Assembly: GCA_027317865.1 (NCBI GenBank)
Contig: DAHVQG010000004.1
Span: 100,399 to 164,398, forward strand
DNA: 64,000 bases
Direction: 5' to 3'
Source of the DNA: Bdellovibrionales bacterium
GTDB lineage: Bacteria; Bdellovibrionota; Bdellovibrionia; Bdellovibrionales; UBA1609
This document shows, in pieces, positions 17,499-28,421 of the stretch. The notes beneath the pieces were generated by a model. The model made no database searches and had not been told where the DNA came from. It was given only the letters and a program-made list of their open reading frames with translations. Numbering within the stretch: position 1 is the stretch's first letter; every line of letters starts with the position of its first letter. Made by a program: the position numbers and the translations under genes.

Positions 17499-18563
17499 CT
17501 AATTCATAGCGAATTCAAACTGTTCGCTAAAAGGCCCCTCACATTTTGATAAGCCGGCTAACCCTTCAATCGACACCGACATATGTTGGGTAAAGAAATT
17601 CGAAACACAGCTAACTTGATATGGAGTTTGGACATCAACGCATGCCTTAAAATCAAGCGAACTAGGAGGGTCCCACCAATGCCGGCCCGTAATCATGAGT
17701 CCACTGAGCCGCGTGAGACATTGAACGGGATATGTTGAACTGGCACGCAACGCAGTTAATGTTTCGCCATTGAATTTCTTAATGTCGTTGGCTACTTCAC
17801 CTGAGTAATAGGTAATATTGGTAAATTGGTTTGCGGCGGCATTTGAGTACGCCCCACCACGGATCATGTCTTCACTCTGATTGTTGGTGTATCCCGTTAA
17901 TTCTTCACTCGAGGTTATCCCAGCAAGCTTCCATTTACCGGAGCGAGTAAAGACATATAATGCTCCCCCAGAGGCGCCTTCCGAACTCGCACAATCACTA
18001 AATATTTCGTCAACGTGTAGCCCACGTACCGTGCAATGTCCGGCAACAACTCGAGTGAATCCCTTAAATTTGTCGTAAGGAAAACCAACCGTTTCGGCGG
18101 GTTCCCCCACATACACCTCGGATGGCTGGGCCACTTCGGCAAACTTCACCCACTTAGGCGCCGGTGACCGCAAATGCACGACCGCAAAATCTTGATAGGT
18201 AATCGGTATATTCCGCCACTGCCATTTGGCATCGTATGAATTATCAAAGTATTGACCTGGCCAACTTTCATCGACAGCTATTTTTGGACCAGCATGACCT
18301 TTATAGAAAAATTCTATCGCATCTGGCTTCCATTCGCTTCCCCAAACGCAATGACCCGCTGTCAGGGCCCATTGGGGAGCAATCATAACGGCAGAACAGT
18401 AAGTGGGATGCGTTGACAACGATAACCTTTGTACCGCCAGTTCGGCTGGTTGCGTATCGTCTGAAACTTGCCGCGGGTCCTTTGCGCCAAACCAACTCGC
18501 CTGCGCACGAATTCCACTGAAGACCGCAGCAACTAGAATCAAAGCAACGGTAATGCCCCGCAA
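17499..18563 (-). CDS. Secreted trypsin-like serine protease with Cys-rich C-terminal extension
   Basis: Signal peptide; triad motifs TAGHC, QDFAVV, CASSEGASGG. Confidence 0.85.
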   Translation of the reverse strand: MRGITVALILVAAVFSGIRAQASWFGAKDPRQVSDDTQPAELAVQRLSLSTHPTYCSAVMIAPQWALTAGHCVWGSEWKPDAIEFFYKGHAGPKIAVDESWPGQYFDNSYDAKWQWRNIPITYQDFAVVHLRSPAPKWVKFAEVAQPSEVYVGEPAETVGFPYDKFKGFTRVVAGHCTVRGLHVDEIFSDCASSEGASGGALYVFTRSGKWKLAGITSSEELTGYTNNQSEDMIRGGAYSNAAANQFTNITYYSGEVANDIKKFNGETLTALRASSTYPVQCLTRLSGLMITGRHWWDPPSSLDFKACVDVQTPYQVSCVSNFFTQHMSVSIEGLAGLSKCEGPFSEQFEFAMN

Positions 18564-18642
18564 ATCCCCCCCTTATCTGAATCGTTCGACTCAGACATTA
18601 AGATTCGTGAACAATACCATTTTCATTTGCAAGTCACTACTG

Positions 18643-26476: not shown

Positions 26477-27397
26477 TCAAAAACACGACCGAGACACATA
26501 CCCACGCTTGCTCCCGACCTGAACCTCAACCCAGCCGTTAATCACTTGATAAAGTGCGTAGCGGTGCCCTCTATAAATTTCACCGATTTTATTGGCACCA
26601 CCGTCAGCCTGCGCCAGCACATCGCAGTTATACTTTGGTGCGCGCGCAATGACTTCTGTGGGAATTGAACTGACTTGCCGTTGTATTTGATTTCGCGCCG
26701 TCCGCATTTTGTTTTTTGCTTCATCCGCACGAAATGCTTTTTCACGCAACACTCGAAGCTGGTCATTTAGCACCTTTTGCTTGCGCCTCAATTGGATGAT
26801 GTCTCTGGCGATTGCTTCGGTTTGCACTTTGTCCTGCTCAACCGTATTTTGAAGTTTCAAATTTTCACTTCTCTGCTGCGCAAGCTTTTGCGCGAGGTTT
26901 GTCTTCTGTGTCTTAGCCATCTGCAATTCGGAATTTGTGATTTTAAGTCTCGTCTTCGTCGCAGAGACCTTTGCCTCAATCTCAGCAACCCATTTCTTTG
27001 AGACTTCTATTTGATGCTTGTAGAGACGCTCCATTCTTCGCTCTTGTGCGATTTGCCGGTCATAAATGCCGATCTGCCGCTTAGCAATGGCTTGCTTGAT
27101 TTTAGCTTCATGTATTTGACGTATAGCCTGTAGGCGTAACTTTTCTTCGGCGAGCTTTTCTTCATGGTCTTGGCGTCGAAGTTGTGCGGCTTCCGTTCGC
27201 GCCTGAATAGAATTAGAAATCACGGAATCGACGTCACTCTCGACATCGTTGACGCTTTCAGCATGAGCCCGCTCAATACAAAAGCCGGTCACCGCTTCAC
27301 CGGACAAAAGTGGAGATGTGAAGCCCGCAAAAACTAACCCGACTAATAGCAATAGCGCTCGAACAAGTTGATGTTTAGACGGCAATCCAATCTTCAT
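26477..27397 (-). CDS. Exported long coiled-coil protein with C-terminal SH3-like domain
   Basis: N-terminal hydrophobic segment, ~190-aa heptad-like region, NGWVEVQVGSKRGYVS end. Confidence 0.7.
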   Translation of the reverse strand: MKIGLPSKHQLVRALLLLVGLVFAGFTSPLLSGEAVTGFCIERAHAESVNDVESDVDSVISNSIQARTEAAQLRRQDHEEKLAEEKLRLQAIRQIHEAKIKQAIAKRQIGIYDRQIAQERRMERLYKHQIEVSKKWVAEIEAKVSATKTRLKITNSELQMAKTQKTNLAQKLAQQRSENLKLQNTVEQDKVQTEAIARDIIQLRRKQKVLNDQLRVLREKAFRADEAKNKMRTARNQIQRQVSSIPTEVIARAPKYNCDVLAQADGGANKIGEIYRGHRYALYQVINGWVEVQVGSKRGYVSRSCF

Positions 27398-27413
27398 AGT
27401 TCACTCCAACTTC

Positions 27414-27440
27414 ATATCGGCAGTTTCATTTAAATGTATA
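27414..27440 (-). promoter_or_regulatory. Putative sigma28 (FliA) promoter TATA-N15-GCCGATAT
   Basis: Near-consensus -10 with correct 15-nt spacing, 16 nt upstream of ATG 27397. Confidence 0.55.
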
Positions 27441-27552
27441 AATTTCAGGACCATACCCATTTTAGCACCTGCATCAATGTGTAGTTCCAGATTGGAGTTA
27501 ACTTTATCTGCAATATAAAAGGAGCTGATGGCAAATTTGCGCGGCCTAGACT

Positions 27553-27570
27553 TTGGCATAGGGATTGCTA
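27553..27570 (+). promoter_or_regulatory. Sigma54 -24/-12 promoter TTGGCATAGGGATTGCTA
   Basis: GG(27555-6)-N10-GC(27567-8) with TGGCA and TTGC flanks; predicted +1 near 27580. Confidence 0.8.
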
Positions 27571-27579
27571 CATGTTCTA

Positions 27580-27633
27580 AGCATCCCCCCTTGGCGGCCT
27601 GGCCCCCCTTACCCTCCAGGTCGCTTTTTTTTT
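27580..27633 (+). ncRNA. Candidate ~54-nt sigma54-dependent small RNA with C-rich 5' arm and C-rich terminator loop
   Basis: Bounded by the sigma54 promoter and an intrinsic terminator; no credible ORF; the downstream amidase has its own -10 box. Confidence 0.6.
27594..27633 (+). terminator. Rho-independent terminator
   Basis: Stem GCGGCCTGG/CCAGGTCGC, 13-nt loop CCCCCCTTACCCT, T9 tail. Confidence 0.8.
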
Positions 27634-27658
27634 GCCCAAAATCGTTTAACCTGAATGT

Positions 27659-28417
27659 ATGCTTTCGTTTTTTGGGCTTTTATTTTTTCTGCCGGCCGCG
27701 TTTGCGTTTCAAGTGTTTTTAGATGCGGGACATGGCGGTCAAGATCGAGGCGCCAGTTACGGAAAAATCGTCGAAAAAACGATTGCTTTAAGCGTCACCA
27801 AACGGGTCGGCCAATTGTTGGAACAGCACTCGGGGATTCAAGTCACGTACAGCCGAACAACGGACGTGTACCGGTCGCTTCAGCAAAGAGTCAGTATGGC
27901 AAACAAGGATCACCCAAATCTTTTTTTGAGTATTCATGTAAACGCATCGCCCGATCGCCGGGCTTGTGGACCCGATATTTATTTTCAGAACGTTTTAGAT
28001 CCTGACCAAGAAACTTTGTTTTTGGCTAACCTCGAAAATCAAAATCTTCGTGACGCGAGCAATTCTCGCCCCTCTGAACACTATGTCAAAGATCCCGATG
28101 TAAACGCTATCATCGATGATCTGGAACGCGACCATCGCATACAGTTGAGCAGTATTTTTTCAGAGGATCTCCGCAAATATTGGGACGGCGATTACGCTGT
28201 TAGCAGTAGCCAAGATATCCGGCAAGCCCCGTTTTATGTGATTAGCAACGTCAATGCTCCAGCCGCATTGCTCGAACTCGGCTATTTGACCAACCCGATC
28301 GAAGGTCCCTTGCTCACTAAAGCCGCGTACCAAAACAAAATTGCCAAAGGTATAGTCAACGCCATAATCAAATACAAAGATGTCGTGGACAAGCGCTCAC
28401 AACAAAGCCTAGATTAA
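27659..28417 (+). CDS. N-acetylmuramoyl-L-alanine amidase (Amidase_3)
   Basis: Signal peptide, LDAGHGGQDRGA, SIHVNA, LLELGYLTN. Confidence 0.93.
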   Translation: MLSFFGLLFFLPAAFAFQVFLDAGHGGQDRGASYGKIVEKTIALSVTKRVGQLLEQHSGIQVTYSRTTDVYRSLQQRVSMANKDHPNLFLSIHVNASPDRRACGPDIYFQNVLDPDQETLFLANLENQNLRDASNSRPSEHYVKDPDVNAIIDDLERDHRIQLSSIFSEDLRKYWDGDYAVSSSQDIRQAPFYVISNVNAPAALLELGYLTNPIEGPLLTKAAYQNKIAKGIVNAIIKYKDVVDKRSQQSLD

Positions 28418-28421
28418 CGAC

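Follow-up and report, generated by a model that had tools for sequence, protein, structure and literature searches.

A probable sigma-54-driven small RNA gene with two C-rich single strands, conserved in the order Bdellovibrionales

In the 64,000-nt stretch of DNA analyzed here (the window; coordinates are positions within it, on the plus strand unless stated), a divergent 306-aa open reading frame and a gene for an N-acetylmuramoyl-L-alanine amidase are separated by a 261-bp spacer, which holds a sigma-54-type promoter, a C-rich segment and a hairpin ending in a run of T. The question raised by this locus is whether these features make up a gene of their own or belong to the upstream region of the amidase gene. 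The explanation that we consider probable is an independent small RNA gene of about 54 nt, driven by sigma-54 and representing a new family in the Bdellovibrionales, whose product would pair in trans, without Hfq, with poly-G Shine-Dalgarno sites.

The features of the locus are collected in Table 1. The consensus for sigma-54 promoters is TGGCAC-N5-TTGCW, and the box in the window, TGGCAT-N5-TTGCT, is one base off this consensus, in agreement with an earlier sequence-only reading of this DNA that had described a near-consensus -24/-12 promoter. With the usual spacing of such promoters, in which the C of the GC dinucleotide lies at -12, transcription in the window would start near A27580. The same reading had reported a C-rich motif occurring twice, and CCCCCCUU is indeed found in both predicted single strands, at 27585-27592 and 27603-27610. 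Its hairpin also stands, although the stem is not of 9 bp as it had counted; positions 27593-27602 pair with 27616-27625 to give 10 pairs, two of them G-U. The U9 tail is present as nine T at 27625-27633, the first of which closes the stem.

Table 1. Features of the spacer and of the two genes that flank it, in window coordinates
Feature	Position	Strand	Basis
Divergent 306-aa open reading frame, no Pfam family	26477-27397	-	ORF list, Pfam
Sigma-54-type promoter TGGCAT-AGGGA-TTGCT (-24 GG / -12 GC)	27554-27569	+	sequence
Parts of the -24/-12 box: TGGCAT, AGGGA, TTGCT	27554-27559 (TGGCAT); 27565-27569 (TTGCT)	+	sequence
Predicted small RNA, ~54 nt, AGCAUCCCCCCUUGGCGGCCUGGCCCCCCUUACCCUCCAGGUCGCUUUUUUUUU	27580-27633	+	start from sigma-54 spacing, end in U-run
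C-rich single-stranded 5' segment, 13 nt, GCAUCCCCCCUUG	27581-27593	+	sequence
5' C-run CCCCCCUU, putative seed 1	27585-27592	+	unpaired in MFE and RNAalifold structures
Hairpin 5' arm GGCGGCCUGG	27593-27602	+	folding and alignment
C-rich loop, 13 nt, CCCCCCUUACCCU, putative seed 2	27603-27615	+	folding
3' arm CCAGGUCGCU and U9 tail, intrinsic-terminator-like end	27616-27633	+	sequence, folding, alignment
Spacer with probable amidase promoter: GCCCAAAAT box, -10-like TTTAAC (27645-27650)	27634-27658	+	
N-acetylmuramoyl-L-alanine amidase gene (neighbor, not part of the RNA)	27659-28417	+	Pfam Amidase_3, E 3e-42

Folding of the predicted 54-nt RNA yields one hairpin that accounts for 78% of the ensemble, with a minimum free energy of -16.4 kcal/mol. 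The fold has a z-score of -2.48, with 3 of 200 shuffled sequences folding equally well, and fold energy taken alone is mildly unusual only; on sequence comparison, it is conservation rather than folding that sets the element apart from chance. The 10-bp GC-rich stem runs directly into U9, as in an intrinsic terminator. A generic terminator scan did not return this hairpin because the scan accepts loops of 3-8 nt only, and the loop measures 13 nt in the window and 10-22 nt among the homologues described below. A loop of 13-16 nt is long for a terminator, and this counts against our best explanation. The loop lengths of the homologues show no period of three, which indicates that the element is not coding. 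Two open reading frames overlap the element (27528-27722 on the plus strand and 27401-27559 on the minus strand); a coding role was considered for them and rejected, as loop indels of 1-2 nt rule out a conserved frame.

Searches of increasing breadth were used for the distribution of the element. With the spacer as query, BLASTN matched its core in 25 of 41 relatives, always covering the promoter and the RNA and never the rest of the spacer. An IUPAC pattern of the hairpin, loop C-run and U-run, run over one genome per prokaryotic species, matched at least 120 stretches; in this pattern the stem and the U-run were fixed and the loop had to contain four C, while the promoter and the 5' C-run were never part of any search pattern. 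Among the titled matches listed, 72 of 80 were records of Bdellovibrio, Bdellovibrionales, (Pseudo)bdellovibrionaceae, Bdellovibrionia, Bdellovibrionota or Oligoflexia, a comparison that leaves out the titles for L101-L140, and one of the 72 is a B. bacteriovorus chromosome. Twelve of 140 loci were dropped as chance matches (L022, L060, L071, L081, L087, L088, L089, L103, L106, L116, L129 and L132), five of which fail a stricter expression while the others are without the C-run and promoter. Where titles of dropped loci were shown, six of seven named Microvirga, Bosea, Hormoscilla, Geofilum and, twice, Dehalococcoidia; L022 is titled "Proteobacteria bacterium". Removal of duplicates left 109 distinct homologues, from which a covariance model (R1) was made.

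Searches with this model gave a match in 106 of the 151 Bdellovibrionales genomes sampled (92 of 125 high-quality genomes), with at least one match in all 13 families of the order and nearly always one match per genome. The match in the genome of the window, G000:C37:127977-128031, corresponds to window positions 27579-27633 (E 3e-12). In the window's own family, 66 of 109 genomes carry the RNA, and no match was obtained in the small-genome genera g17 (0/15), g18 (0/10) and g40 (0/2). Two matches per genome were seen in a few cases: G044 (L312 and L313), G093, G036 and G037. In a phylum-wide sample, the model matched 25 of the 28 Bdellovibrionales genomes and none of 123 genomes from twenty other families. 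These distributions indicate that the family is most likely confined to the order Bdellovibrionales, where it is nearly always single-copy.

The sequence-only reading had proposed looking upstream of the amidase and rph genes of relatives for a conserved promoter and a C-rich loop with stem covariation, and all three were found. Among the 109 homologues, a GG/GC-type sigma-54 box is present in 102, in the strict form TGGCAY-N5-TTGCW in 75, and its spacing is fixed, with 19-34 nt (mode 23-24) between the end of the box and the stem. The loop contains a run of at least five C in 100 of the 109, partly by construction as the pattern required four, and a run of at least five C occurs in the 5' segment of 105, where the searches did not require one. 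Seven homologues are without the promoter box. Two of these, L105 and L011 (genome G011, 1.6 Mb), keep the hairpin and the C-rich loop and have no 5' C-run either; the gene downstream of L011 is not an amidase gene.

The stem is paired in 94% of cells in the alignment of the 109 sequences, from which RNAalifold independently predicts the same hairpin. Pair 22-53 is U-A in 79 sequences, flips to A-U in 30 and is unpaired in none, although the pattern allowed mismatched W/W at this position, and at pair 19-56, 83 sequences have G-U and 26 have A-U. The rest is nearly fixed: five of 11 pairs never vary and two of 11 change on both sides. Because the stem is almost invariant, the covariation is thin, resting on one or two pairs; it could come from few events, and relatedness inflates the counts. 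The invariance of the stem, the loop C and the U-run is itself partly by construction, because the pattern fixed those columns. The stem invariance may also reflect an interacting protein or a DNA-level constraint.

In another reading, no functional RNA exists: the locus would be conserved as DNA, for instance as a binding site or promoter upstream element, or a promoter-like sequence would stand next to a terminator by chance. The region does partly overlap the neighbor's promoter. The public runs that match locus L037, which is of the B. bacteriovorus type, are Logan contigs, mostly metagenome-like and of depth 4-12 (4-6 for metatranscriptome contigs); they span genes, end within the A/T run and are unsuited to showing a small RNA. 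We regard this reading as very unlikely, as a spaced promoter, a pair changed on both sides, a U-run and two C-runs are co-conserved in 13 families and the unit has been duplicated whole.

The relation of the element to its downstream neighbor was examined through gene order. In the window, the amidase reading frame (beginning MLSFFGLLFF and later containing FLDAGHGG) starts 25 nt after the U-run and is followed by the genes for RNase PH (rph) and a Ham1-family protein. In line with the sequence-only reading, which gave the amidase its own -10 box past the terminator, a -10-like TTTAAC is located 8 nt before the ATG, with no Shine-Dalgarno sequence visible. In relatives, a same-strand gene follows 25-114 nt after the terminator and the GCCYAAAAT and -10-like boxes recur behind the U-run. 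Of 20 loci drawn from several families, 17 have amidase and rph after the RNA in the same orientation; two of the remaining three are truncated at a contig end, and in the third a different gene follows. This linkage first suggested that the element is a leader.

At most of these loci, the amidase ATG has a -10-like box 5-8 nt upstream and no Shine-Dalgarno sequence, and most of the 17 carry TAGACA-17-TAAATT-7-ATG at rph. In the window, TGGACA-N18-TAGATT-N6-ATG stands at 28386-28421, where the amidase gene ends and directly before rph. This -35/-10/ATG arrangement makes rph look leaderless, with a promoter inside the amidase gene, and by sequence the upstream layout of both amidase and rph is that of leaderless mRNAs. 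Such mRNAs are common in B. bacteriovorus, where by our own count 25 rows of the attack-phase transcription start site (TSS) table place the start at the annotated start (PMC3627812).

A device acting in cis would use the sigma-54 promoter and the terminator as a leader, attenuator or interference module for the downstream gene, with the RNA as a by-product, and would here set the expression of the amidase-rph-Ham1 cluster. The short distance to the same-strand gene (25 nt in the window and 25-114 nt in relatives) fits such a device. So does the overlap of the U-run and GCCYAAAAT box with the upstream part of the downstream promoter, through which sigma-54 transcription or a bound polymerase could occlude that promoter. 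Evidence on this point comes from genus Bdellovibrio, where at six loci the downstream gene encodes a different secreted protein (Bd2697-type) with a normal Shine-Dalgarno sequence and four of the six have the amidase gene upstream in the opposite orientation, the element still being within ~1.1 kb of amidase-rph. For Bd2697, a TSS has been mapped in strain HD100 at 2,619,972 (Karunker 2013 Table S3, PMC3627812); the element there occupies the minus strand between Bd2697 and Bd2698. The -50 to +1 string of this TSS consists of AATCCTGGTCGC, T9 and 30 further bases; it covers the 3' arm of the RNA, then its U-run and then the neighbor's own promoter, and loci L218 and L219 carry the identical string. 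The same source lists Bd2697 as attack-phase specific, with RPKM values of 1022 versus 10.8 (Karunker 2013, PMC3627812). In addition, the second copy in G044 comes with a separate TGGCAT-N5-TTGCT box as well as a 5' C-run, a hairpin and a U-run, and the 3 kb covered at its locus contain neither amidase nor rph.

Since the amidase is divergent in Bdellovibrio, the downstream gene has a separate TSS (30 nt past the U-run in HD100) and a second copy stands in G044, the promoter and RNA form a self-contained unit, and the independence from the amidase that the sequence-only reading had assigned to the short transcript is supported at these loci. A leader or attenuator of the amidase gene was rejected on the same three observations together with the single dominant fold. 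For the wider class of cis devices, the downstream gene varies, from amidase in family f1 to the Bd2697-type protein in Bdellovibrio, where Bd2697 is transcribed from its own mapped start past the terminator; no alternative antiterminator fold accompanies the single hairpin (78% of the ensemble); the C-runs are conserved whichever gene adjoins; and the G044 duplicate lies at a locus without amidase or rph in the 3 kb covered. A cis device is an unlikely account of these data, with the adjacency to amidase-rph in 17 of 20 loci, and within ~1.1 kb in Bdellovibrio, leaving room for a local role.

The machinery that the predicted promoter would need is present in the genome. An rpoN gene was detected through Sigma54_CBD (G000:C22:3-560, cut by the contig end); a domain search did not find Sigma54_DBD in this assembly because rpoN runs off the end of contig C22. 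Fifteen strong enhancer-binding proteins are encoded (Sigma54_activat matches above 180 bits), one of which is the NtrC-type gene at 719-2125, named by the sequence-only reading as a possible activator, for which no link to the promoter was found. Sigma54_DBD occurs in 103 of 109 genomes of the family, including the RNA-less genera g17 (15/15) and g18 (10/10). Loss of rpoN was considered as the cause of RNA loss and rejected, as the RNA-less genera keep rpoN.

Upstream of the promoter, genus Bdellovibrio has two palindromes, CCGACAATTGTCGG and ATGTCGA-N5-TCGACAT, at -85 to -50 from the box, which look like sites for an enhancer-binding protein; together with a further CTGTCGAGTCCAG, they span 50-155 bp upstream of the box (L216-L221, L023-L139). 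The Bdellovibrio palindromes are absent from the window's genus, which has a different conserved block ~85-125 nt upstream, and comparison of these two genera gave no upstream activator site common to families. In the window, a box TTTATCTGCAATATAAAA is located at 27503-27520, ~35-50 bp upstream of the -24 element, and a counterpart, TTATCTCRAATATAA, is seen in several of the family's genera (L002-L004, L009, L013, L019); it is possibly an IHF-like bend site or the divergent gene's promoter.

In the proposed mechanism, sigma-54 RNA polymerase, turned on by an enhancer-binding activator, would initiate near 27580, and transcription would end at the hairpin and U9 at 27633. The resulting RNA would expose two C-rich single strands, one at its 5' end and one in the terminator loop. 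These C-runs are predicted to pair in trans with the G-run Shine-Dalgarno sequences of other transcripts, which would take place without Hfq; domain searches of this genome, 99% complete, found neither Hfq nor ProQ. Pairing would block ribosome binding on a subset of mRNAs, for which a genus-specific lipoprotein and dksA are the candidates.

G-run sites of this kind are numerous in the genome of the window, where a run of at least five G at -20 to -3 precedes 69 of 1531 long open reading frames (4.5%) and GGAGG precedes 79. The sequence AAGGGGGG has 30 sites in this genome, of which 17 precede a start codon. The best non-self duplex in the genome is formed with AGGGUAAGGGGGG, a perfect 13-nt complement of the whole loop that ends 6 nt upstream of the start codon (ATG) in a 264-aa lipoprotein-like open reading frame (C8:3505-4299); ~0.08 perfect 13-mer complements would be expected by chance in 5.3 Mb. 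Relatives of this protein were found in the same genus only, three of them with sigma-54-like boxes and G-rich ribosome-binding sites.

The most widely conserved target candidate is dksA, for which 18 of 30 Bdellovibrionales genomes (L222-L251) have a run of at least five G (5-10 G) in the ribosome-binding site. Neighboring open reading frames at the dksA loci have such a run in 0 of 44 cases, and the flanks of the dksA G-run are not conserved. Both dksA paralogues of the genome (G000:C41:81339-81704 and G000:C38 near 143640) have G6 and rank 47th and 83rd in predicted pairing among 10,209 start windows. Two genomes in which the covariance model found no RNA, G026 and G038, have the dksA G-run as well, and this run may therefore serve translation as such.

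Conservation of a broader target set was sought in several ways. The 14-mer complementary to the commonest loop, CCCCCUCCUUACCC, has no site beyond the RNA gene in 109 genomes of the family; the complement occurs at 23 places in 22 genomes, and all 23 are the RNA gene by coordinates. Genes with AAGGGGGG in the ribosome-binding site number 17 in G000 and 18 in G006, two species of one genus, with 4 orthologous pairs in common. No shared genes were added from G009 and G029, for which the comparison covered the first 30 sites out of 104 and 92, respectively, with 2 and 13 of them at ribosome-binding sites. G-run Shine-Dalgarno sequences are not enriched after sigma-54-like boxes, with 8 versus 5 GGAGG among 36 matches compared with 69:79 in the genome. 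On these comparisons, the support for individual targets is weak.

Further G-rich sites were observed in the course of these searches. A 354-aa trypsin-like protease (G000:C37:117900-118961, minus strand) has the ribosome-binding site AAGGGGGGG at ~18563-18580, followed by a TTG start, and this motif is shared by 14 open reading frames of at least 100 aa, the others including YceI, DivIVA, GST, a ParB-like nuclease, an alpha/beta hydrolase and a glutaminase. Eight sigma-54-like boxes (G000:C33:124705, C39:58131, C40:31676, C40:24268, C33:13559, C4:10923, C9:24241 and C11:84842) are followed within ~70 nt by a G5-G7 Shine-Dalgarno sequence and a secreted or lipoprotein-like open reading frame, several of which are paralogous. 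These eight sites may constitute a sigma-54 regulon of envelope proteins.

With no convincing conserved set of mRNA targets found, a protein-binding or decoy RNA has to be weighed, whose hairpin and C-rich strands would bind a protein, for example a C-preferring one such as Rho or a KH-type protein, that is titrated or guided. Such a partner would explain a stem that is near-invariant across the order, more so than pairing needs, and the two similar C-runs recall the repeated protein-binding motifs of sponge RNAs. We nevertheless judge a decoy improbable, as the RNA is very short with two motifs only, the gene neighborhood links no candidate protein, C-rich loops that act by base pairing have direct precedents in RepG and sX13, and a perfect 13-nt complement stands at a ribosome-binding site.

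A more far-reaching version of pairing in trans would make the RNA a sigma-54-controlled mimic of the anti-Shine-Dalgarno tail of 16S rRNA and thereby a global switch of translational mode. On a signal, the RNA would compete with ribosomes for G-run and GGAGG Shine-Dalgarno sites, and translation would move from leader-bearing mRNAs, including that of the global regulator dksA, to the many leaderless mRNAs of these predators. This version cites the loop motifs of the 109 homologues, CCUCC in 66 and CCUCCUUA in 27, and we hold it to be decidedly doubtful.

The preferred reading, a small RNA pairing with a subset of G-run Shine-Dalgarno sites, was compared with known systems. A scan of the 64-kb window with Rfam 15 gave 0 matches at the gathering score. 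The best matches below threshold were ncS54 (14.7 versus 43 bits) and suhB (RF00519; 14 versus 41 bits, E 1.3), and sub-threshold matches in this region are at chance level. Because no Rfam family fits, the statement of the sequence-only reading that the RNA cannot be assigned to a known family holds. Full-text literature searches found no description of the RNA, and the Bdellovibrio small RNAs reported in the literature searched are eight attack-phase RNAs, all of at least 98 nt and at other coordinates (Karunker et al.). These comparisons suggest a new family within a known kind, that of sigma-54-type small RNAs with C-rich seeds.

Two systems from other phyla come closest in mode of action. 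RepG of Helicobacter is longer and has two stem-loops. It is restricted to that genus and not described as sigma-54-dependent, whereas the present element combines a single hairpin with a further C-run at the 5' end and a sigma-54-type promoter, and Rfam scans revealed no sequence relation between them. The likeness lies in a short trans-acting RNA in a host without Hfq, trans action being a prediction for the element here. In H. pylori, as described for RepG (HPnc5490), a C/U-rich terminator loop pairs with a G-repeat (PMC8295292). The account of sX13 from Xanthomonas describes C-rich loops (4C/5C) that act, independently of Hfq, on G-rich motifs at or near ribosome-binding sites, motifs that it places in ~5% of genes (PMC3771888). 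This fraction resembles the 4.5% of 1531 long open reading frames found here, in a genome where likewise no Hfq was found, but sX13 is 115 nt long with three stem-loops and no reported sigma-54 promoter, belongs to another phylum and shows no sequence similarity.

Small RNAs transcribed from -24/-12 promoters under an enhancer-binding protein have been described as Qrr in the Vibrionaceae, GlmY/GlmZ, CrcZ/CrcY and Pxr (PMC10162802, PMC3045617, PMC6292655, PMC5684412). All of these differ from the present element in being longer, in having several hairpins and no C-run seeds, and in Rfam models that are unmatched here; Qrr RNAs are moreover Hfq-dependent and often multi-copy, and GlmY/Z and CrcZ act through proteins. 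C-rich anti-Shine-Dalgarno loops are shared with MmgR/alpha-r8 (RF00519 suhB) and with the "cuckoo" RNA CcsR, from which the element differs in length and architecture. MmgR has been reported as NtrC-dependent. The element is not a member of RF00519, its 14 bits standing against a gathering score of 41 (E 1.3).

In total, the element is an order-wide, single-copy unit tied to a sigma-54-type promoter, in genomes that carry ~15 enhancer-binding proteins. It offers a testable entry into this regulation, with one promoter for which an activator and signal can be sought, one predicted RNA of ~55 bases and one candidate class of targets, mRNAs with poly-G Shine-Dalgarno sites, including dksA. If the proposed mechanism is true, the principle known from RepG and sX13, in which C-rich seeds act without Hfq, would extend to another phylum.
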